Part shown: positions 10,141 to 21,781 of the stretch, in pieces
How the letters are laid out: each line of letters opens with the position of its first letter
How positions within the stretch are numbered: position 1 is the stretch's first letter
Source: an uncultured Bacilli bacterium
GTDB taxonomy: Bacteria; Bacillota_I; Bacilli_A; RF39; UBA660
Assembly (NCBI GenBank): GCA_947623705.1
Contig: CANQHT010000002.1
Coordinates: forward strand, 1-35,433
Direction of reading: 5' to 3'
DNA length: 35,433 bases
Translations under genes and position numbers: made by a program
The notes under the pieces: model-generated
Told to the model about the DNA's origin: nothing
The model's input: the letters and a program-made list of their open reading frames with translations, nothing else
The model's database searches: none

Positions 10141-10617
10141 ATGATGATAATGCTTCCAAATGACAATAATAATCAAAATAAAATAGTATTTGAAATTGGT
10201 AAAGGATTAAGAATATTTATGTTAGTGGTTTCTATAATATTTTTTATTCCTGCCATTGTATTTTTGATTCAAGCAATAAAAAATGCTAATATGGGTGAAC
10301 TTATTGGGGTATTAATTTTTGTAATATTGGCGTTAATTAGTTTATACTTATATTTATTATTTAATAAAAAAGTTGTATATGAAAATAATACTTTAACGAT
10401 TTATAATATTTTTGGTAAACATACTTCTATTAATGTTAAAGATATAAAACAAGCAATTGAAATGCCATTAGATGGAATGAAATTAATTTATGATGATAAT
10501 AAATATATTAAAATTGATGTACAAATGAATAACTATGCAAAGATTAAAGATATTTTAGAAAAAAACAATATATCTTATGAAGATAAAAATGGCAATAACG
10601 CTCCGAAGGGATGGTAA
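10141..10617 (+). CDS. Small membrane protein, unknown function
   Basis: Two predicted TM helices (LRIFMLVVSIIFFIPAIVFLIQAI; LIGVLIFVILALISLYLYLLF) and an upstream GGTAGGG RBS-like sequence. Confidence 0.55.
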   Translation: MMIMLPNDNNNQNKIVFEIGKGLRIFMLVVSIIFFIPAIVFLIQAIKNANMGELIGVLIFVILALISLYLYLLFNKKVVYENNTLTIYNIFGKHTSINVKDIKQAIEMPLDGMKLIYDDNKYIKIDVQMNNYAKIKDILEKNNISYEDKNGNNAPKGW

Positions 10618-11033
10618 TAAATATGGGAAAATTTTGTTTATATTATAAGAAAAATGGTAATTCATTACTTGGTGATGTCTTAAAGGTAAAAATAGATGAT
10701 AATGAAACTTTTGAAGTTAATAAAAACGAAGTATATGTGGTAGAACTTACTAATGGAACTCATAATTTTAAAATGTATTATGAAGGCTGGTCTAGTGAAG
10801 AATTAGTTGGTTATATAGATGAAAATATAGAAATAAATGGAGATACATATTATATTTATAAAGATCCTAAAACCATATATGGAAAAGGTAGTTTAATAAG
10901 AAAAAATTCTAAAAGTCCTGAAGAATTTACTAAAAATGTTAAAAAATCTAATATAACTTCAGCAGTTTTAGGATTGTTATTTATTATATTATTGTTTATT
11001 ATTGTCATTGTATTAGAAATAGTCACTGAGTGA
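10611..11033 (+). CDS. Hypothetical protein with C-terminal TM anchor
   Basis: Overlaps the previous ORF by 7 nt. C-terminal AVLGLLFIILLFIIVIVLEIV. Confidence 0.5.
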   Translation: MVINMGKFCLYYKKNGNSLLGDVLKVKIDDNETFEVNKNEVYVVELTNGTHNFKMYYEGWSSEELVGYIDENIEINGDTYYIYKDPKTIYGKGSLIRKNSKSPEEFTKNVKKSNITSAVLGLLFIILLFIIVIVLEIVTE

Positions 11034-11084
11034 TTATTAAATTAATAATGGTATTTTTTAATTAAAAAATGTGTAAAATTAACT

Positions 11085-11258
11085 ATGAAAAGAAATTTTT
11101 ATGTTATTTTTACTTTTTTTATATGTACTTTAATTTTATATTCTTTAAAAGTGGAAGCCGTACTACCTTTGACCGGTAAAACTATTGTCATTGATGCGGG
11201 ACACGGGCGATACTCTTATACCAAGACAAATAAAATAAGTATGTTAGAGCTGAAATAA
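11085..11258 (+). pseudogene. cwlD: 5' segment of a CwlD-type N-acetylmuramoyl-L-alanine amidase gene, interrupted after codon 41
   Basis: MKRNFYVIFTFFICTLILYSLKVEAVLPLTGKTIVIDAGHG is a TM/signal anchor plus the start of Amidase_3 (D-x-GHG). It is followed by 16 unrelated codons (RYSYTKTNKISMLELK) and a stop. Not in the ORF track because it is only 57 aa. Confidence 0.85.
11185..11225. repeat. attL (cwlD half-site + core ACACGG + element arm GCGATACTCTTATACCAA)
   Basis: The element arm at 11208..11225 is the imperfect inverted repeat of the right-end arm at 20368..20387. Confidence 0.7.
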
Positions 11259-11336
11259 TGCAATAAAACGGTATTGAATATCGTTTTTTTTTAAAATCGT
11301 GTTATAATTAAATAGAAAGATATAGAGGTGAATTTT

Positions 11337-11768
11337 ATGACATATGAAGAACAAAGAAAAGAAGCAATTTCTAGAATACAAGAATTAACAAAAAAATTTA
11401 ATCTTAATAATAATATGCTAGAATTTTTTCAAAACGGAAAAATTTACGGACTTGATTATGCAGATGTGGAAGATAAAAAGAAAGAAGATAGAAGTAAATT
11501 AATTTCTAATATTATAGAAAAGTGTCAAAAAGAATATAATTCAGTAGTTTACTATTTTAATATTGTTGATGTTAACTTTGAAGGGTATGATTTAGATATA
11601 TTAAGTATATTTTATGTTGGACAATATAAAGAAGATTGGGAAAATGAAAGACTATCAGAAAATAATGAGATGTATATACTAACTTATGACCTTAATACTC
11701 CAGAATATCCCGAGTTAGGTTTTGTAACAGTAACTTCCAAAGATGGAAACCTAATAAGAGCTTCATAA
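11337..11768 (+). CDS. Element cargo protein, unknown function (paralog of 13767..14195)
   Basis: ATG at 11337 lies 6 nt after the AGAGGTG RBS (the track starts at GTG 11328). It has its own extended -10 promoter (tgttataat) and is preceded by a hairpin plus T-run at about 11264..11292. Shares QRKEAI..L.K.FNLN..LE.F..GKI with the second copy. Confidence 0.65.
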   Translation: MTYEEQRKEAISRIQELTKKFNLNNNMLEFFQNGKIYGLDYADVEDKKKEDRSKLISNIIEKCQKEYNSVVYYFNIVDVNFEGYDLDILSIFYVGQYKEDWENERLSENNEMYILTYDLNTPEYPELGFVTVTSKDGNLIRAS

Positions 11769-11791
11769 GAATTTAAAACGACTAGTAAATA

Positions 11792-11998
11792 CTAATCGTT
11801 TTCTTTTTCGCCTCTAGTTTCTTTATTTTTAAGATTATCTAGGGCATACCTTATACATTGATTTATTAATTCATTTCTACTTACATCAATTTGTCCTGCA
11901 AGTTTGTCAATTTCTTCTAATGTTTCAATATCAATTCTTATTGTTGCAACTATTTTTTCGCTAGTTGTTGGTTTTTTATAAGGTTCAAATTCTTTCAT
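11792..11998 (-). CDS. Ribbon-helix-helix (CopG/MetJ-type) DNA-binding protein
   Basis: 68 aa. IVATIRIDIETLEEIDKLAGQIDVSRNELINQCIRYALDNL fits the beta-strand/helix/helix RHH pattern. RBS AGAAAGGGCGG. Confidence 0.65.
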   Translation of the reverse strand: MKEFEPYKKPTTSEKIVATIRIDIETLEEIDKLAGQIDVSRNELINQCIRYALDNLKNKETRGEKEND

Positions 11999-12112
11999 TT
12001 TAACCGCCCTTTCTACATATATATTGTAATAACTTTTAGAATTTATTCATATACTTAAATCTAGAAGCGACTATAGATTATAAAATATAATCATAAATAT
12101 AATCAAAAGTGT

Positions 12113-12141
12113 ATTGACAGCGAAAAATAACTATGTTAGAA
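12113..12141 (+). promoter_or_regulatory. Near-consensus sigma-A promoter
   Basis: TTGACA (12113..12118), a 17-bp spacer ending in TGt, then TAGAAT (12136..12141). Confidence 0.6.
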
Positions 12142-12147
12142 TTATAT

Positions 12148-12262
12148 TGTCGGTAATGAAGTGCTAAAATCCGACATTGTAGTAATTGTTGGTTGTAGTA
12201 TGTAGTTAAGCCAACAATAGCAGTATCGGAACACGGCAGTATCATGTGTTCCTTTTTTATTT
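12148..12262 (+). ncRNA. Candidate structured small RNA or cis-acting leader/attenuator (about 115 nt)
   Basis: It lies downstream of the promoter. Hairpins are tgtcgg/ccgaca (12147..12175) and ttgttgg/ccaacaa (12186..12217). An intrinsic terminator ggaacac-11 nt-gtgttcc plus TTTTTTATTT (12228..12262) ends 55 nt before the lipoprotein ATG. No riboswitch class recognised. Confidence 0.4.
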
Positions 12263-12316
12263 GATACAAGCATTGTTAAAATGTTTGAACATAAATTTAA
12301 AATGAGAGGTGTTAAA

Positions 12317-13333
12317 ATGAAAAAATTAAAATGTTTAAGTTTAGTTATGTTAGTAGCTTTAATGTTAACTGGTTGTGGTGGAAAAGATAGTGTTAGTAAT
12401 CTTAATAGTCCCGAAAAAGTTGTTGCTCGTTATTGTGATATACTTGTTAATGGAAATTATGGTGATATATTAGATATTGCTGATTTACCAGAAAGCGAAT
12501 TTATAACAAAAGATATAATTAACGGAGCAAAAGCCAATTTTCGTGAAAGATTTTTAGAAGAAAATGAAGAGGCAATTTCTTGTACTTATACTATGGCAAC
12601 TGAAGATGATGAAAAAGTATCTTATAAACTTGTAATAAACGAAAGTAGTACTAAAACGTTAGATATTAAGAAAAGCAATAATAAAGCTATAATAGATGAT
12701 ATTTATGTAGAAGCTAATATTTATAGTCCTTTAGGTTCAAGTGTAACTGTGGACAATATAGATATTTCAAAATATAAGATTTCCGAAACTTCTAATATAT
12801 ATGATAATTCAGCTGTAGAACATTATACTATAACAGTATTAAGTGATTACAATTATAGTGTTAAATCATCACACCCATTACTTTCAACTTCTCAAGAAGC
12901 AAATTTTACTGATGATGAAGAAGGACTATTAGTATTCTTTTCATACTATGTTGGCTACAAAAACTCTCCAGAGAAAAATGGATATGGAGAAAATATGACT
13001 GAAATTACAATTAAAGAAAAATATTATAATGAAATTGAAAAATTCGTTGATGAAACTATTGTACCAATTATTAAAGATGTTTCTGATAATAAAGATATTA
13101 GTAAGTATAATCAATATTTTGTAGATGGTGATGCTACTATTTTATCTAACAAAATAAACCCAAAATATTTAAGTGATAGTTTCCCAATTGAAACGATTAG
13201 TTTATATGGCGAAAATAAAGTAGAAATATTAATTCGTTATGCACACTCATCTAGTAACGGTGGTAGCGACTTCCATTGCAATTTAATGATTATTAGAAAT
13301 GGTGATAATTGGAAAATTGAAAGTGTGAGATAG
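12317..13333 (+). CDS. Lipoprotein, NTF2-like/DUF4878-like ends, unknown function
   Basis: MKKLKCLSLVMLVALMLTGCGG is a canonical lipobox. ATG 12317 follows RBS GAGAGGTG (the track start 12281 is an upstream in-frame extension). N-terminal SPEKVVARYCDILVNGNYGD and C-terminal LMIIRNGDNWKIESV look NTF2-like. Confidence 0.75.
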   Translation: MKKLKCLSLVMLVALMLTGCGGKDSVSNLNSPEKVVARYCDILVNGNYGDILDIADLPESEFITKDIINGAKANFRERFLEENEEAISCTYTMATEDDEKVSYKLVINESSTKTLDIKKSNNKAIIDDIYVEANIYSPLGSSVTVDNIDISKYKISETSNIYDNSAVEHYTITVLSDYNYSVKSSHPLLSTSQEANFTDDEEGLLVFFSYYVGYKNSPEKNGYGENMTEITIKEKYYNEIEKFVDETIVPIIKDVSDNKDISKYNQYFVDGDATILSNKINPKYLSDSFPIETISLYGENKVEILIRYAHSSSNGGSDFHCNLMIIRNGDNWKIESVR

Positions 13334-13589
13334 TACTATTAATAAATTATTATATGAGAACAATAGTAAAAGAAGTTAAACAAAACGAAGATATTTATAT
13401 TTTACATAGTATTATTGAATTATGTATTTGCATTATATTGATAAAGTACCAAAAAGCATTGTTAAACGATTATATAATTTATATAAAGAAACACTTAAAG
13501 AAATAGAAAAAGATTACGAAGATTTAGACATTAAAGATTATGAAATTATAGAAAGAATTATATTTGAAGATAAAAAACATTAAAAAAAG

Positions 13590-13633
13590 CAGAATGTTGG
13601 ATCATAAATAAATGTTCCAATGTTCTGTTTTTT
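13590..13633. terminator. Strong bidirectional rho-independent terminator
   Basis: A 12-bp stem cagaatgttgga / tccaatgttctg (two G-U pairs), with an A7 run upstream and a T6 run downstream. Confidence 0.65.
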
Positions 13634-13654
13634 GAATTTACCTAAAATAATTTA

Positions 13655-13690
13655 AAAAATACCATTTTAAATCTCTACAAATACCATATT
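13655..13690 (+). promoter_or_regulatory. Two direct copies of the AAATACCAT operator-like motif, 21 bp apart
   Basis: aaaaATACCATttta and acaaATACCATattt lie upstream of the 13767 gene. The same motif occurs three times at 14856..14912. Confidence 0.45.
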
Positions 13691-13766
13691 TAGTTATGAT
13701 ATCATTTACTCATCAACGAAATACTAGTTAATTGTTGAAAAAATAAATTTGAAAGGATATATTATT

Positions 13767-14195
13767 ATGAACGAAAAAAAACTTAAAGAAGCTCAAAGAA
13801 AAGAAGCAATTAAAAAATTAAAGAAATTAGAAAAATTATTCAATTTAAACCCAAAAGTGTTAGAAGATTTTGAATTAGGAAAAATTAATACTAGTTTATT
13901 TGACAAAATTGTTGAAACCCAAAACATAAAAAATCTTGATAAAATTATTACAGATTTTGAAAAAGAAAATAATGCATTAGTTTATCATTGTATAGGTGGT
14001 TACTTTAATTTAGTGTTTTTATTATTTGTCAACGAAGAATATCCTTCGCCATTGTATGATTTAGGTGATAAAAAATTTGCAATATTTTCTTATCGTACTA
14101 GTCTTACAAAAAATTGCACTTATTATAATATTATGGGTTTAGCAACTTTGGATAGTAATAAAGGAGTATTGACAGTAAAAAATTGGTTTTGCTGA
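13767..14195 (+). CDS. Element cargo protein, unknown function (paralog of 11337..11768)
   Basis: ATG 13767 follows RBS GAAAGGA (the track starts at TTG 13749). The N-terminal helix LKEAQRKEAIKKLKKLEKLFNLNPKVLEDFELGKI matches the first copy. Confidence 0.65.
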   Translation: MNEKKLKEAQRKEAIKKLKKLEKLFNLNPKVLEDFELGKINTSLFDKIVETQNIKNLDKIITDFEKENNALVYHCIGGYFNLVFLLFVNEEYPSPLYDLGDKKFAIFSYRTSLTKNCTYYNIMGLATLDSNKGVLTVKNWFC

Positions 14196-14243
14196 AAAAT
14201 AAAAAATTATAGATTTAAAGTGGTCTATAATTTTTTTGAATAA

Positions 14244-14840
14244 TTAATTATTATCAATTCTTGTACAATTATAATTTGCAATTTTTACTGATGGAGATAC
14301 AATGATTTTATAATACTTCTCTCTTAAATTCTCAACTTCAAAATCAAATTCATCTTGTTGGATATCTCCATTATTCTTTTTTTGTTCTAATAATTTTTTG
14401 TTATAAAAGTATTCTAATAAATATTCATTTGTAGAAAAATTTAATATTAACATAGGGTCTTCCTTATCATCACATAACGGAAATTCAATATCAAAAATTT
14501 GTTCAAAAGCAATTTCGGCTGTAATTTCTTTTTCATTAATATAATCACTAATACCAAATAAATAATCTAAACTAACATTAAATTTTTTAGAAATTTTTAA
14601 TGCTTTATCTAATGTTAAGCCACTATTTCCTTTTTCAATAGAATATAATGTTTCAACACTAAAACCATTAATATCTTTTACAAAATCTTCAGCTTTCAGT
14701 CCTAAATTTTTTTGTAAAGCTTTTACACGATTTCTAGCAATTTCTTTTACTTCGGTATTTTCACTAAAATTGTCTGCTTTTTTTTCTTTGTCTTCATCAA
14801 ATATTTTTTGTATCTTTTCATCTCTTTTAATTTCTTTCAT
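14244..14840 (-). CDS. XRE-family HTH transcriptional regulator (probable element repressor)
   Basis: HTH_3 pattern VKALQKNLGLKAEDFVKDINGFSVETLYSIEKGNSGLTLDKALKISKKFNVSLDYLFG. It is divergent from the transfer operon. RBS AGAAAGGAAA. Confidence 0.8.
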   Translation of the reverse strand: MKEIKRDEKIQKIFDEDKEKKADNFSENTEVKEIARNRVKALQKNLGLKAEDFVKDINGFSVETLYSIEKGNSGLTLDKALKISKKFNVSLDYLFGISDYINEKEITAEIAFEQIFDIEFPLCDDKEDPMLILNFSTNEYLLEYFYNKKLLEQKKNNGDIQQDEFDFEVENLREKYYKIIVSPSVKIANYNCTRIDNN

Positions 14841-14855
14841 AATTTTTCCTTTCTC

Positions 14856-14927
14856 ATAAATACCAAATTTTTTTAAATAAATACCATTTCAACATAATTT
14901 ATTTACCATATTATTTTGTAATATAAT
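14856..14927 (+). promoter_or_regulatory. Divergent control region: three operator-like repeats plus a -10 for the transfer operon
   Basis: ataaATACCAAattt, ataaATACCATttca and ttatTTACCATatta (20 and 23 bp apart), then TATAAT at 14922..14927. The last repeat overlaps the -35 position. A downstream 8-bp inverted repeat tcaagaga/tctcttga (14970..15016) lies in the leader. Confidence 0.5.
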
Positions 14928-15049
14928 GTTCTTACTCAAGCGAGATATAGGCCTATAAAAAGCTTGATTTCAAGAGATATTATATCATATATAAATTTGT
15001 GACACAATTCTCTTGATTTTAAAAAATTTAACGAATAGGAGGAAAAACT

Positions 15050-15370
15050 ATGATTTTCAAAATTAATGATATTGTGGTAGATTTTAAAGCCACCTTTGGA
15101 AATAATTTTGGTCTTGTGAACGTAGAAGAAAAGCGAAAATATGTAGATGGTGCTAGAACTGATGAAACATATTTTGTAAATACGATTGTTTGTTTTGATA
15201 AGCGTTTACGTACTTTTCAAATTAAGACAGATAAACAATTTGTATCTGCTCCACAAGAGGGCGACATTGTTGGTGTTGCTTTAGTTGGTGCTGTTGCTAA
15301 ACCTTATGTAATGAATAATCAGCTAGGGTTTACGGTAACAGTAGATGATATTAAAGTTATTAAAGAATAG
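15050..15370 (+). CDS. DUF961/HelP-like protein (Tn916 Orf22/23, ICEBs1 HelP family helicase processivity factor)
   Basis: 106 aa. The TFGN..F near the N-terminus and the V.LV....Y......GFT....DDI pattern near the C-terminus match my recollection of Tn916 Orf23-type proteins. It is the first gene before the FtsK-like gene, as in Tn916/ICEBs1. Strong AGGAGG RBS. Confidence 0.6.
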   Translation: MIFKINDIVVDFKATFGNNFGLVNVEEKRKYVDGARTDETYFVNTIVCFDKRLRTFQIKTDKQFVSAPQEGDIVGVALVGAVAKPYVMNNQLGFTVTVDDIKVIKE

Positions 15371-15410
15371 GAGAGCTTAATTGCTCTCGTCCCTACGGGG
15401 ACAGAAAGGA
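15371..15410 (+). repeat. Intercistronic double hairpin + RBS, copy 1
   Basis: gagagc-ttaatt-gctctc, then gtccc-tacg-gggac, then AGAAAGGA. The same architecture recurs at 15770..15809. Confidence 0.5.
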
Positions 15411-15416
15411 CTAATT

Positions 15417-15761
15417 ATGGTATATATTAAAAAAGATATGAATATAAAGAATAAATTAGATGAGATTTTTAATAAAGCTGAAAATTTTAGAAAAGATGGT
15501 GAGATAGCTAAAGCTTTATCAAGCTATAATGAATTCTTAAATGTCGGAGAAATGGTAAATGATTGCTCTAGACATCACGAGGCATATTGGGGTATGTGTT
15601 TAACTTGGTATCTTCACTCAAGAAATTGTAATAAATGGCATACCTTAATTGAATATTTATATGATATGACTATGGTTTATGCACCTATTGAAAAGAAAGA
15701 AGAATATAGCAAATTTTATAATGATAATATGCTTCATTTTAAAGAAGAAGTTACTAGCTAA
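15417..15761 (+). CDS. Hypothetical Cys/His/Trp-rich protein of the transfer operon
   Basis: ATG 15417 follows RBS AGAAAGGA (the track start TTG 15381 would run through the hairpins). Contains DCSRHHEAYWGMCLTWYLHSRNCNKWH. Confidence 0.55.
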   Translation: MVYIKKDMNIKNKLDEIFNKAENFRKDGEIAKALSSYNEFLNVGEMVNDCSRHHEAYWGMCLTWYLHSRNCNKWHTLIEYLYDMTMVYAPIEKKEEYSKFYNDNMLHFKEEVTS

Positions 15762-15769
15762 AATTTTAT

Positions 15770-15809
15770 GAGAGATTAAATTCTCTCTTCCCTAAATTGG
15801 GAGAAAGGA
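15770..15809 (+). repeat. Intercistronic double hairpin + RBS, copy 2
   Basis: gagaga-ttaaat-tctctc, then tccc-taaatt-ggga, then GAGAAAGGA, 8 nt before ATG 15817. Confidence 0.5.
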
Positions 15810-15816
15810 AAAATTT

Positions 15817-17052
15817 ATGAAAAATAATATTTTAAAAAAAATTAATCATATTAATTTAAAAATAATATTTATATTGTTATATATTGTATTAGCACAATTA
15901 ATATTTCATAGAGCTGAATATATTTTAATTAACTTTATGGAATTGAAACAAAATTCAATATTATATTATGTATATAAATATGGTCTTGGTATAATTTTAA
16001 CTTTAATTTTAATAGCACTAATAATAACTTTAAAAAGATTTAAGATTAACAAAAAGAAAGAAACAAAAGGTATGGAAGATATTAAATTAAAAAATGGAAA
16101 TAATGAATTTATGAGATGTGTTGATATTATTAAAGGAACAGAAGAAAACCAAAATATTTATGTACTAGAAACGAAAAATATTCCATTATCTATAATTAAA
16201 GAAAATAAAGACAAATTAGAAATGATATACGATATTAAAATAGATTATATAGAATATAAAAATGGTACTACTAAATATGTAAATGTTTATGGTACACCAA
16301 TGAAATATATTAAACCTAAATTATTTCAAGTGAATACGGAAGACCAATTTATGGCTAATTTTCAGTCGCTCCTAGTAGTTGGGACATCTGGGTCGGGTAA
16401 GACATATTACACTTATCAGCAGTTAGTTAAGCTGATATTAAATGTATCCAAAAGTAAAAATAAAAATAAAAATGAAAATGAAGCAAATTTTGAAAAGGTA
16501 TTAGTCTTTGTTAATGACAGAAAAAACGAAGATTTTATACAATTTAAAGATTGTCCTAATTATTATGGAATTAATGCAATAGATGGTATTAGAAAGGTAC
16601 ACGAGATATTTATGGAAAGGTTAAATAGTGGAGAAAGTAGCGAAGATAAACCTACTATTATATGTCTAATAGAGGAATATGCTGTTTTGTTAAATTCTCT
16701 AGATAAAAAAGAGGCAGAAGAAATAAAAGATAAAGTTGCAGATTTATTATTTGCTGGCCGTAGTAAAAAGGTCATACCTATTGTATCATTACAAAGGTGT
16801 GATTCTTCTTATTTTGTTAGGGGTAGCCGTGAACAGTTTAAGCGAATAGCTATATTGGGAAACAATTCTCCTATTTTATTAGATATGATATTAGGAAAAG
16901 ATTTGCAAAGTCAAATTACTGAAAATAACCCACAAGGTTATGGTTATCTTTACGAAGATGGTAACCCTAAATTGACCCGTTTTAAGGTTGGTAAAATTAC
17001 AGAAGAAGAAAAAGAAATGTTTGATAATGTTATAAGGAGCAAAATGTGTTAA
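15817..17052 (+). CDS. FtsK/SpoIIIE-TcpA-like DNA translocase (conjugative coupling protein, ConQ/Orf21-like)
   Basis: Two N-terminal TM helices, Walker A LLVVGTSGSGKTY and Walker B PTIICLIEEYAVLL. 411 aa. Confidence 0.8.
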   Translation: MKNNILKKINHINLKIIFILLYIVLAQLIFHRAEYILINFMELKQNSILYYVYKYGLGIILTLILIALIITLKRFKINKKKETKGMEDIKLKNGNNEFMRCVDIIKGTEENQNIYVLETKNIPLSIIKENKDKLEMIYDIKIDYIEYKNGTTKYVNVYGTPMKYIKPKLFQVNTEDQFMANFQSLLVVGTSGSGKTYYTYQQLVKLILNVSKSKNKNKNENEANFEKVLVFVNDRKNEDFIQFKDCPNYYGINAIDGIRKVHEIFMERLNSGESSEDKPTIICLIEEYAVLLNSLDKKEAEEIKDKVADLLFAGRSKKVIPIVSLQRCDSSYFVRGSREQFKRIAILGNNSPILLDMILGKDLQSQITENNPQGYGYLYEDGNPKLTRFKVGKITEEEKEMFDNVIRSKMC

Positions 17053-17135
17053 CGTGGCCGTACGGCGAAACGAAGTGGAAGCCAGTACGATCCACGTAGC
17101 CACTCGTAGAGTGGCGATATTGACTTGATATCTTA
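17052..17135 (+). promoter_or_regulatory. Candidate oriT (origin of transfer / double-strand origin)
   Basis: A GC-rich island in AT-rich DNA. It has a long imperfect hairpin acgtgg..cgtac..ggc / gcc..gtacg..ccacgt (17052..17097), a perfect hairpin gccactc-gta-gagtggc (17099..17115) and gatat-N7-atatc. It sits between the coupling-protein and Rep genes, where oriT sits in Tn916 and ICEBs1. Confidence 0.5.
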
Positions 17136-17162
17136 TAACACAAAAACATATTATTTAATTTT

Positions 17163-18053
17163 ATGAAGATAGAGAAATTAAAAGATAACCCTAAAATAGG
17201 TTTAAATGCTGAAAGTCAAGTAACGGTTAAAGAAACTGGAAATCAAACAGAGGTTAAGTATGCAATTAATAAAACTGGTGGAAATATTGTTAAATTAAAT
17301 AGCAAAGAGTATATGGTAGTAACTAGTGGAGAAATTAAGTGTTTTTCAAATTCTGCCACTTCTAGAAAAGACAATAAATCAAGTATTAAAAGAACTATGA
17401 AAAATTTACGTGATATTATTAATACTAATATAACAGATTATAAGAAAGTTCTTTTTATTACATTAACTTATAAAGAAAATATGACTAATGCAGAACAATT
17501 ATATCAAGATGTAAGAAAATTCCATCAAAAATTTAAGAGATATTTAAAAACAAATAATCTACCTTATGAATTTGAATATATTTCAGCTACAGAGTGTCAG
17601 TCAAGAGGTGCATATCATCAGCATAATCTTTATATATTTAACACAAAAGCTCCATTTATAAAAAATGATATATTAACTAAAATATGGGGTCACGGTTTTA
17701 CAAAAACTAAATCTCTTAAAAACGTTGACAATATAGGTATGTATTTAACGGCATACTTAACAGATTTAGATTTAAGCGAAGATTTAGAAAAAGAAACTGG
17801 AAAGAAAGTTAATAAAGCTATTATTAAAGGTGCAAGATTAAAACTGTATCCTAAAGGTTTTAGAATTTATCGCACAAGTAAAAATATTAAACGCCCTAAC
17901 GTATATACAGCTACCGAAGATGAAATAATGCAAAAGCTAGGTAATTCCGTTTTAACTTATGAAAAAACTTTACGTATATCTAATTATGATAATAAAACAA
18001 TAAATATCATCAATTATAGAAATTATAATAAACTTGTTAAAAACAAAAAATAA
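17163..18053 (+). CDS. HUH-superfamily rolling-circle Rep-like protein (probable relaxase/replicase)
   Basis: Three RCR motifs in order: VLFITLTYKEN (motif 1), GAYHQHNLYIF (H-u-H), and GMYLTAYLTD (Y-x-x-x-Y catalytic tyrosines). Confidence 0.75.
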   Translation: MKIEKLKDNPKIGLNAESQVTVKETGNQTEVKYAINKTGGNIVKLNSKEYMVVTSGEIKCFSNSATSRKDNKSSIKRTMKNLRDIINTNITDYKKVLFITLTYKENMTNAEQLYQDVRKFHQKFKRYLKTNNLPYEFEYISATECQSRGAYHQHNLYIFNTKAPFIKNDILTKIWGHGFTKTKSLKNVDNIGMYLTAYLTDLDLSEDLEKETGKKVNKAIIKGARLKLYPKGFRIYRTSKNIKRPNVYTATEDEIMQKLGNSVLTYEKTLRISNYDNKTINIINYRNYNKLVKNKK

Positions 18054-18118
18054 TAACTTGTTAAACTACTAGGGAAAGGTAAGGTGTAACCTCAAATTTT
18101 TAAGGAGAGTGATACACT

Positions 18119-18268
18119 TTGAAAAAGTTAACACAAGTATATACAAATAAATTAAGTAAAAAAGATATATACATAAAGAAATTTAACAAAACGGCAATTA
18201 TTGAAGAAGATTTTCATATTCACAAATACCATAACATACTTTTTATTAAGGGGTTAAAATATGACTAA
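18119..18268 (+). CDS. Small ORF (49 aa), possible accessory/RDF candidate
   Basis: TTG start 9 nt after TAAGGAGAG. Too short for the ORF track. Contains another AAATACCAT motif (18224..18232). Confidence 0.3.
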   Translation: MKKLTQVYTNKLSKKDIYIKKFNKTAIIEEDFHIHKYHNILFIKGLKYD

Positions 18269-18401
18269 ATATGATATAGTGGTATCTAGTGAATTTGTAA
18301 CCGATACAAAAACAGAAGAAGATTTTATAACACTTTTTAATCAAAAATTAGCTACTTTATTTTTGATAATAGAGCAAAAGGATAATTTGGGACTAAAATA
18401 G
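18261..18401 (+). CDS. Small acidic ORF (46 aa), possible accessory/RDF candidate
   Basis: ATG overlaps the previous stop (tATGacTAA) and is preceded by AAGGGG 7 nt upstream. MTKYDIVVSSEFVTDTKTEEDFITLFNQKLATLFLIIEQKDNLGLK. Confidence 0.3.
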   Translation: MTKYDIVVSSEFVTDTKTEEDFITLFNQKLATLFLIIEQKDNLGLK

Positions 18402-18470
18402 TATGAGTATTTATGATATAATTTACTTGTATTATTTCAGTTCAACATATAATTAAGAAAGGAAAATTAT

Positions 18471-20366
18471 ATGTTTGAAGAATTAAAAGGTGGTGAAACT
18501 TCTTCTTATAATAATACACAAGATTATAATATTAAAAATGTTTCGGTAGAAGATTATACAAGTTCGGTAGAGTTCAAAGCAATAAAAGAATTGCTAGTAG
18601 AGGATAACCTAATATATGTTACAGAATTTATAAGAAAGCTACTTGATATTAAAAAGCCAAATGATACAACTTGTTTTACGTGTGGAAATGGTAATAAAAT
18701 AGTATATAAAAATGGTTATGGTAAAAGAGCGATTTTATATCTTCGTTTATCAGTTGAAGATATGCAAAAGAAAGATACAACACCTAGTAAAAGTATTCTT
18801 AATCAATTATTATTACTTTTACAGTATTGTAAAGAACACGAAATAGAAGTAGTTGGAATATTTTACGAAGAGGGTATTAGTGGTGCTGATGAGAATAGAC
18901 CAGAGTGGAATAAATCGCTAGTCTTCTGTGAAAAAGGACATTGTGATATATACATTACAAAAACTCAAGCCCGTTTTGCAAGAGATGTTGAGATGATAGA
19001 AAGATATTTACACAAAAGATTTATTGAGTGGAATATAAGGTTTTTAAGCATTGTAGACCATAGCGATACATCACAAAAGGGTAATAAATTACAAAGGCAA
19101 ATAACGGCTATTGTAGATGAAAATAAATTGTCCGAGCAGTCAATAAACACAAAAGCAACTTTGAGAGGTAAAAATCAAGCTGGACAATGGACAGGGTCAT
19201 TTGCTTGTTATGGTTATATAGAAGACCCAAACGATATGTATCATTTAGTACCAGACCCACCAGCTGCTAAAATAGTACAAAAGATATATGAACTATATGC
19301 AAATGGTACGGGTTACTTTAAAATATGTAAGTATCTTAACGAACATAATATACCAACACCAAGTAAATATAAGAAATTGCAAGGGTCAAAGTTTAAATGT
19401 TGCAAAGCTCCAAATGGAAGTGAATTTTGGAATATTGATACCGTACGAAAGATACTAAAAGATGAAACTTATGATGGGTTACTTATTCAAAATAGAACAG
19501 AAACAATATCTTATAATATTAAGAAAGCAAGAAAACTACCAAGAAGCGAGCAAACAATAATTGCTTGTGCTCACGAAAGAATTGTTGACCCAGTTATTTC
19601 AAGAATTGTAAGACAAAAATTTGAGGCAAGAACAAATGCAACTTGTGATAATATAGATACTATTCATACTAGACCAAAACCCGACAAAAACGGCGAAGTA
19701 CATATTTTTAGTCAAAAAGTATATTGTGCAGAGTGTGGAAAGATTTTTCAAAAAACTACTGCTAAAAGTGGACCTCGTAAAAACCCTACTAAAAAAGATT
19801 ATTTGCATTGTAAAACGAATAAAAGAACTTGTCAAACTGGTTGTACTAATAATTCATCAATTCGTATTGAAGTATTGGAACAAGTTGTTTTAGAAGAAAT
19901 AAACAAACAAATTGACAAATATTATAATGAAGAAAAATTTAATAAAAGTTATTATGAGAAAAAAGTTAACACCAATTATGAAAATGAAATTAAGGCATTA
20001 CAAGAAGAAAAGATAATGTTAGATAAAAAAATTAAAGATAATACAAATCGCTTTACCTTACTTTATGAAGATAGAGCAAACGAAGTTATAACTACACAAG
20101 AATTTATACTATTAAAATCAAAATATAATGATGAGATAGAACGTTTTAATAATCGGTTAAGAGAAATAGAAGATTTAATTATTTCTTTTAATAATAAGAA
20201 ACAACAACAATTAAATGAACAAGAGATATTTAAAAAATATAAACATATTGATAAGTTAGATAGATTAGTTGTTGAAACGTTTATATCAAAAATCATTATG
20301 GGAAAAGTTGATAAAGAAACTAAAAAGAGAACTATAAATATCGTTTGGAATATTTGTAGTTCCTAA
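18471..20366 (+). CDS. Large serine recombinase (integrase) with ~80-aa N-terminal extension
   Basis: Resolvase catalytic domain (RAILYLRLSVEDMQ, Ser at about residue 94; ITKTQARFARD), a recombinase domain, a zinc ribbon (CAECGK..HCKTNKRTCQTGC) and a C-terminal coiled coil. RBS AAGAAAGGAAA and an extended -10 (tgaTATAAT, 18414..18422). Confidence 0.9.
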   Translation: MFEELKGGETSSYNNTQDYNIKNVSVEDYTSSVEFKAIKELLVEDNLIYVTEFIRKLLDIKKPNDTTCFTCGNGNKIVYKNGYGKRAILYLRLSVEDMQKKDTTPSKSILNQLLLLLQYCKEHEIEVVGIFYEEGISGADENRPEWNKSLVFCEKGHCDIYITKTQARFARDVEMIERYLHKRFIEWNIRFLSIVDHSDTSQKGNKLQRQITAIVDENKLSEQSINTKATLRGKNQAGQWTGSFACYGYIEDPNDMYHLVPDPPAAKIVQKIYELYANGTGYFKICKYLNEHNIPTPSKYKKLQGSKFKCCKAPNGSEFWNIDTVRKILKDETYDGLLIQNRTETISYNIKKARKLPRSEQTIIACAHERIVDPVISRIVRQKFEARTNATCDNIDTIHTRPKPDKNGEVHIFSQKVYCAECGKIFQKTTAKSGPRKNPTKKDYLHCKTNKRTCQTGCTNNSSIRIEVLEQVVLEEINKQIDKYYNEEKFNKSYYEKKVNTNYENEIKALQEEKIMLDKKIKDNTNRFTLLYEDRANEVITTQEFILLKSKYNDEIERFNNRLREIEDLIISFNNKKQQQLNEQEIFKKYKHIDKLDRLVVETFISKIIMGKVDKETKKRTINIVWNICSS

Positions 20367-20367
20367 T

Positions 20368-20415
20368 TTGGTATAACAGTATCCAGCACACGGTTCGAAA
20401 GATGTGGGTACTAGT
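20368..20415. repeat. attR (element arm TTGGTATAACAGTATCCAGC + core ACACGG + cwlD half-site)
   Basis: The arm starts 2 nt after the recombinase stop codon and is an inverted repeat of the attL arm. Confidence 0.7.
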
Positions 20416-20916
20416 TATGGTAGTATTTATGAAAAAGATATTAATTTAAATATTGCCTTATTTTTACAAAATGAATTAGGGGCCTTGGGGGCAACTGTCT
20501 ATATGACAAGAGATGGTGATTATGATTTATCCACTCCTAAAGCAAATTTTCGCAAGAAAAGTGATTTTGACAACCGCATTAAATTAATTAATGAAAGTGA
20601 TGCTGACCTTTATTTAAGTATTCATATTAATTATTTATCTAATGCTGCTTATTCGGGTCCGCAAGTGTTTTATAACAAAGATAATGAGAACTTAGCTAAA
20701 GTCATGCAAGAAGTGATGAATAAAAATTTAAAAGGAGACCGGGAAGTTAAAAAAATTCCTAGTACAACCTATATGTATAATAAGTTAAAAGTACCAGGAG
20801 TTTTAATTGAATGTGGTTTTTTATCTAATGGGGAAGAAAGAAAAAAATTAGTCACTGAAGATTATCAAAAAAAGATTGCTAAAACTATTGCTGAAGGAGT
20901 TCTGGAATATTTTTAA
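20377..20916 (+). pseudogene. cwlD: 3' segment of the CwlD-type amidase gene
   Basis: The frame opens at 20377 (QYPAHGSKDVGTSYGSIYEKDINLNIALFLQ..). The remainder of Amidase_3 is present (YMTRDGD, DLYLSIHIN, VLIECGFLSN). There is no SD before the tracked GTG 20404. Confidence 0.85.
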
Positions 20917-21781
20917 GTTCAATTAATCTTACTAATTTTAGAAATTCTTCTAAATCGGTATTATTGTGTAAAACTTCATAAGCTAAAGTATTCATTTTAA
21001 TACATAAATCAATTGTTATTTTAAATAAATCTTCTAAAGAATAAGTATATTCTTCATCCTTTTTAGGATGTTTCCATTTGTTATGATCTTTATTTAATAA
21101 TCTCTCATCAAAACTCGTAATATAATAAGTATTATCACTAAATGTTTCATCTTTTTTTACTAACTTATCGACAATTTTATAAAAATGCCTTTTAATACCT
21201 TTATTATCTAAAACAAAATATCTATGGATATAATAACCATTCCGTATAGAGCCAGCCATAATTTTACCAATATTATCTTCATTATAAGCCTCTTTAAAAG
21301 CATAAGTAACTAAATTACTTAAATCTTTAGTAAACTTTATTTTTGGTAACATTATTTTATAATCATGGCCTTGTAAATTTCTCTTCTGTAAATAATTACT
21401 TAAAGCATAATCGAGCATATATTCAATTCTAGAATGTTTAATAACTAAATTTTTAACTTGAAAGTTTATATACGGGTGTAATAAAGTATCAGTTATATAA
21501 TGATTAAGAAAGCCATAAATAATACTATAATCATTATCTAAATTATTCATCTTTATATATTGAATTAAACTTTTAAAAAAGATATCAACATTATTTTTAT
21601 GGGCCTTTATTCCAAAATTCTTATAATATTCCCAATGTTTATGGTAATAATATAAATTATCAAATCCTTGATTAAAAATATAGTAATAATTAATATTTTT
21701 TTGAATATTTTCTTTTAGAGGTTTATCTAATTTGTCTAAGACTTTCTTCCCTATTTTATAATGCGTATATAATGTCGGCAT
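20885..21781 (-). CDS. Zinc-dependent phospholipase C-like family protein
   Basis: MPTLYTHYKIG.. N-terminus and the GFLNHYITDTLLHPYIN pattern, as in PF00882-like proteins of Clostridia. The 3' ends overlap cwlD convergently by 32 nt. Confidence 0.55.
   Translation of the reverse strand: MPTLYTHYKIGKKVLDKLDKPLKENIQKNINYYYIFNQGFDNLYYYHKHWEYYKNFGIKAHKNNVDIFFKSLIQYIKMNNLDNDYSIIYGFLNHYITDTLLHPYINFQVKNLVIKHSRIEYMLDYALSNYLQKRNLQGHDYKIMLPKIKFTKDLSNLVTYAFKEAYNEDNIGKIMAGSIRNGYYIHRYFVLDNKGIKRHFYKIVDKLVKKDETFSDNTYYITSFDERLLNKDHNKWKHPKKDEEYTYSLEDLFKITIDLCIKMNTLAYEVLHNNTDLEEFLKLVRLIELKNIPELLQQ

Follow-up and report, generated by a model that had tools for sequence, protein, structure and literature searches.

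The stretch of DNA analyzed here (35,433 nucleotides, positions 1 to 35,433 of the forward strand of contig CANQHT010000002.1, assembly GCA_947623705.1, from an uncultured Bacilli bacterium; referred to as the window) contains a cwlD-type amidase gene that is interrupted by inserted DNA at its Gly-His-Gly codons, and it raises the question of what this insertion is and how it moves. Its right part encodes, in this order, a small protein with an oligonucleotide/oligosaccharide-binding (OB) fold, an ATPase of the FtsK superfamily, a structured spacer, a rolling-circle initiator (Rep) and a large serine recombinase, and none of its genes matches a mating-pore family. We regard it, with a rough probability of 60%, as an integrative mobilizable element (IME) of the 'TcpA + rolling-circle relaxase' kind, which probably replicates transiently and most likely hitch-hikes on other conjugative elements. 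An earlier reading made from the letters alone (in the following the sequence-only reading) had also arrived at an IME; the absence of a type IV secretion system (T4SS), the serine integrase with its attachment (att) sites and the gene layout stood up, the kinship to DUF961 and to the initiators of Tn916 and ICEBs1 had to be qualified, and a helper of the Tn916/ICEBs1 class was not found in the host assembly.

The insertion and its processing module

The insertion covers about 11207-20393, and its size of 9,187 bp is given by an identical core, ACACGG, that is present at both ends (11201-11206 on the attL side and 20388-20393 on the attR side). The two 16-bp terminal arms are inverted relative to each other and complementary at 15 of 16 positions, and arms and core together have the appearance expected of a serine-integrase attP site that was split by integration. 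The element has a G+C content of 26% and each of its flanks one of 27%, and it is single-copy in the host assembly. The sequence-only reading had placed the insertion at 14244-20366, which comprises its right two thirds and leaves out about 3 kb on the left with four genes; within this range all genes and motifs that had been listed were recovered by listing of the open reading frames (ORFs) and by family scans. The features that carry the argument are the following:

11085-11206, forward strand: 5' part of the cwlD-type amidase gene, from a signal-like N-terminus to Gly-His-Gly; intact congeners read ID(A/P)GHG here
11209-11224, no strand: left inverted-repeat arm, half of an attP-type site
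15050-15370, forward strand: 106-aa OB-fold protein, remote DUF961/HelP-like relative by model and profile comparison
15817-17052, forward strand: 411-aa membrane-anchored TcpA/Orf21-like ATPase of the FtsK superfamily by fold and profile, with the motif GTSGSGKT; putative coupling protein
17053-17162, forward strand: origin region of 110 bp, candidate double-strand origin (dso) or origin of transfer (oriT), with hairpins at 17053-17096 and 17099-17115 and CTTGATA at 17124-17130
17163-18053, forward strand: 296-aa two-tyrosine HUH rolling-circle initiator (PF23343, 4.4e-19), putative relaxase/replicase
18261-18401, forward strand: 46-aa ORF, candidate directionality factor, kept upstream of related cwlD-targeting serine recombinases
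18471-20366, forward strand: 631-aa large serine recombinase (integrase) with Resolvase, Recombinase, Zn_ribbon_recom and DUF4368 domains
20368-20383, no strand: right inverted-repeat arm, the other half of the attP-type site, complementary to the left arm
20388-20916, forward strand: ACACGG core (20388-20393) and 3' part of the cwlD-type amidase gene, which resumes at 20394 (PF01520 Amidase_3, 3.9e-38; TIGR02883 spore_cwlD, 2e-50)

The coupling ATPase

Judged by fold and profile, the 411-aa protein is a TcpA/Orf21-like ATPase and a putative coupling protein. With its AlphaFold2 (AF2) model (pLDDT 83.3), ranks 1-6 of a Foldseek search against the PDB were all taken by pCW3 TcpA (E 9e-15 to 5e-13), followed by FtsK motor domains (~1e-11) and then by type VII EssC/EccC and HerA. 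The model aligns to TcpA (PDB 6o1w-6o1z) with TM scores of at most 0.60 on the query and at most 0.68 on the target, at 13-15% identity. A profile of the ATPase family matched an Orf21-type FtsK/SpoIIIE protein from a Tn916-like segment of an Enterococcus plasmid (hhalign 98.4%, E 4.5e-15), and this match spans the whole ATPase domain. The FtsK-like ATPase with a Walker A motif that had been deduced earlier is borne out. Two hydrophobic segments are found at the N-terminus, at residues 8-34 and 48-78 by hydropathy and as helices 11-31 and 48-88 in the model. TcpA likewise has two N-terminal membrane helices.

In PHROGs the ATPase matched an FtsK/SpoIIIE-like family (2.6e-8) and more weakly the terminase-large-subunit family phrog_2666 (5.1e-6). 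Full-length homologues number 59, are 42-63% identical and almost all unannotated. Weak matches to FtsK_SpoIIIE were obtained for 14 of 21 aligned relatives (best 4.1e-6) and weak matches to HerA (DUF87) likewise for 14 of 21; a relative from genome G012 lies above the FtsK_SpoIIIE gathering score with 30.7 bits. A PF01580 match above the gathering score is the criterion for TcpA in the available text of a streptococcal survey (PMC5357655), and because the window ATPase does not reach this score it is filed as TcpA-like by its fold and not as a profile-defined member. Searching the PDB by sequence was uninformative for the ATPase, the Rep and the family profile of the OB protein.

The OB-fold protein

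The 106-aa protein is modelled as an OB fold (AF2, pLDDT 88.7). Its top VIA structural match is 2k5d (SAG0934; Z 6.9), tied with single-stranded DNA-binding proteins (Z 6.8); 2k5d is in turn matched by sequence from an Orf23-type DUF961 protein (E 0.0016), and OrfM of ICESt3 was found at Foldseek rank 7. A word-based search returned five relatives and an exhaustive profile search 205 at E <= 0.001, mostly 100-115 aa long. Scanning of 148 of these relatives, with two long repeat proteins left out, gave six weak matches to PF06125 (DUF961), one of them just above the cut-off, and no other family recurs among them. A profile of 131 sequences matched an Orf22-type DUF961 protein over 103 columns (hhalign 87.9%, E 3.3e-6), but no alignment was obtained with the Orf23-type protein (0.7%). 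The earlier label 'DUF961/HelP-like' thus appears fair as a description of distant kinship and of fold, as seen in profiles and model, and does not extend to membership in the Pfam family.

The rolling-circle initiator and its candidate origin

By its profile matches the 296-aa Rep belongs to PF23343 (REP_ORF2-G2P, 69 bits with a cut-off of 27.8; phrog_3419, 2.6e-17), a family known from small rolling-circle plasmids and from inoviruses, and not to Rep_trans/MobT. On the window Rep, Rep_trans/MobT (PF02486) gave no match, and a Tn916-type MobT used as control scored 1.6e-73; Rep_1 matched with 4.7e-6, under its cut-off. The motifs FITLTY, H-x-H and Y-x-x-x-Y (YLTAY), on which the HUH assignment of the sequence-only reading had been based, are invariant in all seven aligned relatives, the invariant residues being T100/T102, H152/H154 and Y194/Y198. 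The HUH Rep as such is therefore confirmed, with the qualification that its family is not the one of the Tn916 and ICEBs1 initiators. A role of this protein as relaxase is putative. Its relatives on plasmids comprise 96 records, of which the best-covering ones are mostly plasmids of 1.5-2.7 kb.

The spacer between the ATPase and rep genes has a G+C content of 60% in its first 63 bases as compared with 26% in the whole element. Folded as DNA it forms three hairpins with -18.8 kcal/mol (z = -4.2), and none of 200 shuffled sequences reaches this stability, which agrees with the G+C-rich structured intergenic region described before. The arrangement of hairpin and CTTGATA is found again in the related loci L016 and L017, likewise between the genes for ATPase and Rep; there the second stem is one pair shorter with the pairing kept and 28 bases around the motif are identical to the window; looser versions are present in L018 and L068. 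Because a hairpin followed by CTTGAT also lies directly upstream of rep in the plasmids pEXIG02 and pBAW301 and in an inovirus, all with the same Rep family, the spacer is a candidate for the cognate nick site of Rep. The two-tyrosine motif and the nick motif CTTGATA probably correspond to those of the phiX174/pC194 group. In Tn916 and ICEBs1 oriT is located between the gene of the coupling ATPase and that of the initiator, which is also the position of the spacer here. A gene order of tcpA and relaxase with oriT between them is also stated in the available text of PMC5357655.

Relatives and exchange of modules

In a scan of 185,579 species genomes the ATPase family was found at 17 loci, all of them in metagenome-assembled genomes from uncultured gut 'Bacilli'/'Tenericutes' or similar. 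The builds of the relatives were derived by tblastn and by Pfam scans of 94 proteins from seven related loci. L016 and L017 carry the OB protein, the ATPase, the origin, a PF23343 Rep and a serine recombinase 38% identical to that of the window. In L018 the same block, without the serine recombinase, is joined to a Tn916-type Xis and a tyrosine integrase, and in L002, L004, L008 and L015 the ATPase occurs with a circovirus-type Viral_Rep (PF02407), a Tn916-type Xis and an integrase. L068, at a contig end of a congener, encodes an XRE regulator, two surface Ig-like genes, OB protein, ATPase, Rep and an HTH_17 Xis-like gene. The ATPase family is thus found with three unrelated combinations of Rep and integrase. 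No T4SS genes were detected at any of the seven related loci whose proteins were scanned; homologous elements with adjacent T4SS genes, of which the window element could be a form with these genes deleted, were not seen among them.

Some further observations were made on these loci. The sister element L016 (3696-10919)/L017, whose Rep is 72% identical, has apparently inserted into a gene for an ABC-transporter ATPase and is flanked by N- and C-terminal ABC_tran fragments. Most relatives of the ATPase belong to builds of the Viral_Rep type, which by their gene sizes also include L006 and L011. Among the Viral_Rep-type elements, one has an RNA_helicase match and some have a sigma-70-like gene or a sortase.

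Mating pore and helper

The 12 ORFs of the element were scanned against Pfam, NCBIfam, PHROGs and PADLOC. In the first three of these collections no ORF matched a family of T4SS or capsid proteins, and the lone terminase-type match is the weak one of the ATPase, which lies below its match to the FtsK/SpoIIIE-like family. Both the missing mating-pore genes and the missing capsid and terminase genes had been anticipated from the letters. A mobilizable element of this build would depend on a pore encoded elsewhere, and it is with regard to the identity of the helper that the IME reading is weakest.

Several results weigh against this reading. IMEs with relaxases of the rolling-circle replication (RCR) type were proposed to rely on helpers that have TcpA and a pore of the FA type, according to the available text of PMC5704250. 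A resident helper of the Tn916/ICEBs1 class, for which a search of the host genome had been suggested, was not found in the host assembly (1.15 Mb in 122 contigs, 85% complete): AAA_10 gave nothing over its cut-off and P-loop_TraG, TrbL_4, TpcC and Rep_trans gave no match. Of the 42 genomes of the genus, none has the FA-type marker TpcC and two have Rep_trans. The host does encode an orphan 441-aa VirD4-like protein (L033, G000:C6:10241-11566; T4SS-DNA_transf, 119 bits), located just after the rpoA-rplQ cluster and followed by three unknown genes, without T4SS neighbours. The two integrative and conjugative elements (ICEs) examined in the genus (G014:C7 and G015:C2) are of the VirD4/MobL type; both encode a VirB4-like ATPase and VirD4, to which G014:C7 adds a TrbL-like gene, a MobL relaxase and a serine recombinase. 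The ATPase module itself is rare, being present in 3 of 42 genomes of the genus. With regard to the proteins, the window ATPase has no Pfam match, PF01580 FtsK_SpoIIIE included, and the 106-aa protein has none in Pfam (E <= 0.01, PF06125 included), NCBIfam or PHROGs. The plasmid records with a related Rep were classified as non-mobilizable in 65 cases, conjugative in 29 and mobilizable in 2, and because the nearest relatives replicate mostly non-mobilizable plasmids, homology does not imply a relaxase activity of Rep. Finally, pieces of the element (window 10600-21000) were found with 0-1 differences in contigs of four animal gut metagenome runs (X1, X5, X6 and X7) from three studies, and in these four runs no contig contains a junction of 11206 with 20394 or of 20393 with 11207, a result that is uninformative with contigs of ~5x depth; other contig joints that were found, with sides of 20-30 bases, seem to be spurious.

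On the other side, these two ICEs show that possible helpers exist in congeners. The genome with the first of them, G014, also carries a Viral_Rep-type relative of the window element, and VirB4-sized proteins (>=775 aa) are encoded in 4 of 10 other host genomes of element relatives; VirB4 matches of ~600 aa were not counted because they look like a core HerA-like gene. At the end of the ICE in G015:C2 (L079, 147-2138) a 663-aa serine recombinase is encoded, in which a LysM match (residues 321-363) lies inside the recombinase domain.

The serine recombinase and the cwlD target

The 631-aa protein is, as judged by its domains, a complete large serine recombinase (integrase): Resolvase (5.4e-18), Recombinase (3.8e-18) and Zn_ribbon_recom (2.8e-11) are present together with DUF4368, and the PHROGs match is to an integrase family (phrog_95, 3e-80). 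The large serine integrase of the sequence-only reading is thereby confirmed with all three expected domains, to which the att sites are added. The 46-aa ORF upstream of it is a candidate directionality factor, since ORFs 35-37% identical occur at the same position in the elements of G047 and G053, both of which are devoid of ATPase and Rep.

The target is a cwlD-type gene, the 3' fragment of which scores 171.5 bits against TIGR02883 with a cut-off of 221.55, the score being under the cut-off because this part of the gene is a fragment. Excision of the element would restore the reading frame. Among 30 congener cwlD loci (L037-L048 and L097-L114), 15 are intact with ID-x-GHG and 12, the window included, are interrupted at the His codon; the other three lie at a contig edge and could not be judged, which gives 12 interrupted loci out of 27. 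The cwlD of G053 is interrupted likewise, so that cwlD-splitting elements are present in at least 13 of 42 species of the genus, which makes the site a hotspot of insertion across the genus. Related att arms and recombinases that are 50-60% identical by tblastn and alignment were found in three of the 12, namely in the window, G016 and G047. In nine species a nearly identical element end of 75 bp lies beside cwlD genes whose products share only 65-78% identity, and each of the nine contigs stops ~90 bp upstream of the cwlD part. A common end beside diverged cwlD genes suggests a recent spread of one element among species.

As side observations, the cwlD elements of G047 (L069, G047:C5, 4717-12343) and G053 (L070, G053:C10) have a size of ~7.5 kb and a 717-aa recombinase, 59-60% identical, whose gene is placed at the opposite end and in the opposite direction; their cargo consists of a 960-aa protein without assigned function and a SIMPL-like protein, and no ATPase and no Rep were found in them. 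Homologues of large serine recombinases are abundant in this genus in spite of its small genomes, with matches in 28 of 42 genomes and up to seven per genome.

The position within a sporulation gene brings up a different view, in which the insertion is a skin-like intervening element that is inherited mainly vertically and removed from cwlD by the serine recombinase during sporulation, its mobilization and replication genes sustaining the circle or being leftovers. This view is compatible with an IME and we consider it possible, though rather unlikely. It would account for the insertion exactly at the Gly-His-Gly codons with a frame that excision would restore, for an interruption at the same codon in 12 of the 27 judged congeners with 15 intact, and for the interrupted cwlD of G053. 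The host has spo0A, and a second copy of cwlD was not found in its assembly (85% complete). The available text of PMC7563491 contains the hypothesis that serine-integrase elements within genes are excised upon induction of the target and persist by replication. However, the 75-bp end common to nine species points to recent horizontal spread and not to a domesticated switch, and the available parts of four papers on intervening elements (PMC5595907, PMC5025042, PMC5499854, PMC4191935) make no mention of cwlD. The excised junction was seen in no contig, with the same limit of depth as above. In Bacillus, cwlD is expressed in both compartments, and this fits excision restricted to the mother cell less well.

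Both functions might also be combined. The element may tentatively be considered a mobilizable replicon and at the same time a developmental switch that the serine recombinase, with the 46-aa ORF product as directionality factor, would excise in sporulating cells to rebuild cwlD. The rolling-circle Rep would then sustain the circle, and the TcpA-like pump would feed it into a passing pore or help with its placement in the forespore. If this were true, the cwlD-splitting elements of at least 13 of 42 species would constitute a new class of sporulation-gene intervening elements, and the window element would be the first intervening element built from an IME.

Plasmid, prophage and pore-free alternatives

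The insertion could also be an integrative rolling-circle plasmid without conjugative transfer, in which Rep and origin would do no more than replicate the excised circle and the ATPase would serve segregation or other membrane-linked DNA handling, but we judge this improbable. The Rep family is typical of tiny plasmids with rep as the sole large gene, and neither a helper in the host assembly nor FA-type pores in the genus were found. However, small rolling-circle plasmids need no such ATPase, and the ATPase of the window is closest to the proven conjugative TcpA by fold and to Orf21 by profile. Furthermore, its family occurs with three combinations of Rep and integrase, which is the pattern described for streptococcal IMEs in the available text of PMC5357655.

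An integrated inovirus-like or other single-stranded DNA prophage or satellite is very improbable. The phage relatives of Rep comprise eight records, the best of which, at 35% identity, is the inovirus 'bajarodino virus 9', where Zot, the origin with hairpin and CTTGAT and rep follow each other in the same order, and the Rep family is present at 14 loci in viral contigs of IMG/VR. However, the likeness of the ATPase to the Zot of this inovirus is limited to the P-loop (probability 8.9%), there is no Zot match in Pfam, and the ATPase family has 0 relatives in the 2.9 million viral contigs of IMG/VR. A run of coat-like membrane ORFs is missing, the sole free-standing hydrophobic small ORF being that at 13354-13506. 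PHROGs gave no capsid match and the weak terminase-type match only. This reading was rejected for these reasons, that is the ATPase not being Zot-like and its family lacking viral relatives, and the absence of a set of coat ORFs and of a capsid.

It is hardly probable that the element transfers itself in the absence of a type IV pore, with its FtsK-like ATPase moving DNA by itself in the manner of TraB of Streptomyces plasmids: pore genes are absent from elements with this ATPase (0 of 7 scanned loci), the expected helper class (TpcC) is absent from the genomes of the genus and TcpA, FtsK and TraB are related according to the available text of PMC5704250, but the HUH nickase and the OB-fold protein point to single-strand processing rather than to double-strand pumping, and the TraB-type system is known only from mycelial actinomycetes (see also the available text of PMC5704250).

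Proposed course of mobilization

For the favoured IME, the large serine recombinase, possibly assisted by the 46-aa ORF product as directionality factor, would excise the 9,187 bp within the ACACGG core, by which cwlD would be rebuilt and a circle formed. The HUH Rep would nick the origin with hairpin and CTTGATA upstream of its own gene and remain on the 5' end, and the OB-fold DUF961-like protein would aid a host helicase in unwinding. Rolling-circle replication of the nicked circle would maintain the excised element in the cell. The membrane-bound TcpA-like ATPase could pass the Rep-bound single strand to the pore of another conjugative element, and the recombinase would reinsert the element at the cwlD His codon in the recipient. 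The identities of the genes, the structure of the att sites, the conservation of the origin, the lack of pore genes and the modular distribution of the relatives were observed, whereas excision, nicking, replication and each step of transfer are inferred.

Further genes of the element

Four further genes are located in the left third of the insertion, and three smaller features accompany the processing module:

11328-11768, forward strand: 146-aa protein, function unassigned, without a Pfam, NCBIfam, PHROG or PADLOC match; paralogue of the 148-aa protein
11792-11998, reverse strand: 68-aa ribbon-helix-helix (CopG/Arc-like) DNA-binding protein (PF01402 RHH_1, 4.4e-5, above cut-off)
12281-13333, forward strand: 350-aa predicted lipoprotein, cargo, with a signal peptide and an LTGC lipobox and without a family match
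13749-14195, forward strand: 148-aa protein, paralogue of the 146-aa protein, with a weak homologue in L018
14244-14840, reverse strand: 198-aa XRE-family helix-turn-helix regulator, divergent from the processing operon (PF01381 HTH_3, 1.8e-6; phrog_8, 2.9e-11)
15381-15761, forward strand: 126-aa protein starting from TTG (114 aa from the first ATG), without a credible family match
18119-18268, forward strand: 49-aa ORF without a Pfam, NCBIfam or PHROG match

The 146-aa and 148-aa products are 42% identical over 80 aa. A language-model look-up of the 146-aa protein returned unnamed phage and Bacillota clusters only, and a copy of its gene, 71% identical, is present in the L011/L012 elements, whose Rep is unrelated. 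The ribbon-helix-helix protein matched repressor families of PHROGs and has homologues in the L008 and L018 elements. For the 350-aa lipoprotein the language-model look-up likewise led to unnamed clusters, made up of hypothetical proteins of phages and Bacillota, and offered no more than NTF2-like leads. A gene 53% identical to that of the 126-aa protein is found at the same position in L018, and it is absent from L016 and L017. Defence-system cargo was considered and rejected, as PADLOC gave nothing but sub-threshold noise on the 12 ORFs. A promoter and terminator scan was uninformative, with 73 promoter-like sites as compared with 71.8 expected.

Implications

IMEs are thought to outnumber conjugative elements, yet they have been catalogued almost only in streptococci. 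The window element and the 17 related loci reveal a toolkit of TcpA-like ATPase and rolling-circle Rep in uncultured gut Bacillota with small genomes, which is freely combined with integrases of either type, serine or tyrosine, and with Reps from no fewer than two unrelated families. As the genus apparently lacks the expected type of pore, the question arises which pores such elements use. Moreover, the insertion interrupts a catalytic-site codon of a spore-germination gene, and about half of the related species have this site occupied. Such a setting lends itself as a natural test case for whether serine-integrase elements within genes are excised on cue and survive by replication.

Comparison with known systems

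In Tn916 (orf23-orf22-orf21-oriT-orf20) and ICEBs1 (helP-conQ-oriT-nicK) the genes for the OB/DUF961 protein and the FtsK-like ATPase, the origin and the gene for the HUH initiator follow each other in the same order as in the window element. The layout of the window also equals the annotated order YdcP-YdcP-FtsK-MobT of the Tn916-like segment on the Enterococcus plasmid, which upholds the resemblance to orf23/22-orf21-oriT-orf20 that had been seen in the letters. Unlike these elements, the window element has a two-tyrosine Rep that is PF23343/Rep_1-like, one OB gene instead of two, no pore genes and a serine instead of a tyrosine integrase. The closest structural counterpart of its ATPase model, TcpA of pCW3 from Clostridium perfringens, differs in that the window ATPase is shorter (411 aa) and the element has no tcp pore genes. 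The Rep and its origin are shared with pEXIG02, pBAW301 and 'bajarodino virus 9' (PF23343, 31-40% identity, with the same hairpin and CTTGAT), of which the first two are free replicons and the third is a virus, none with an integrase or a TcpA-like ATPase.

With regard to the site of insertion, skin (sigK), SPbeta (spsM) and gin (gerE) are likewise large-serine-recombinase elements inside sporulation reading frames, the frame being rebuilt by excision. They are prophage-like or minimal and carry no mobilization genes, and developmental excision was shown for them, whereas it is only predicted for the window element. Tn4451/Tn4453, which we take to be mobilizable elements of Clostridia with the serine recombinase TnpX and the Mob protein TnpZ, resemble the window element in this pairing; their Mob is presumably a canonical relaxase, and they presumably have no TcpA-like ATPase or RCR Rep, unlike the window element.

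The closest known systems are IMEs of streptococci. IMEs with TcpA and RCR-type relaxases as well as the mobilization of Rep_1 plasmids by ICEBs1 are described in the available text of PMC5357655 and PMC5704250. The streptococcal IMEs (Rel_PHA00330, Rel_PF02407 and Rel_PF01719) have the same compact order of coupling ATPase, RCR-type relaxase and recombination genes, they likewise have no T4SS, and their modules for integrase, relaxase and TcpA are freely exchanged. Among the relatives of the window element it is the Viral_Rep builds (L002, L004, L008 and L015) with ATPase, Tn916-type Xis and integrase that match them closely. The window element itself differs from them by its large serine recombinase and sporulation-gene target, by an OB-fold DUF961-like gene in the module and by its hosts, which are uncultured gut Bacillota with small genomes. 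In the available text of the surveys, RCR-relaxase/TcpA IMEs always have tyrosine integrases, and serine integrases occur only with canonical relaxases (PMC5357655, 144 IMEs; PMC7563491, 167 IMEs/dIMEs). A literature search that covered few subscription journals and no supplements returned no description of the present combination or of a cwlD intervening element. The kind of IME is known, and what appears to be new here is the pairing of a TcpA-like/RCR block with a large serine recombinase in an element that resides inside a sporulation gene.

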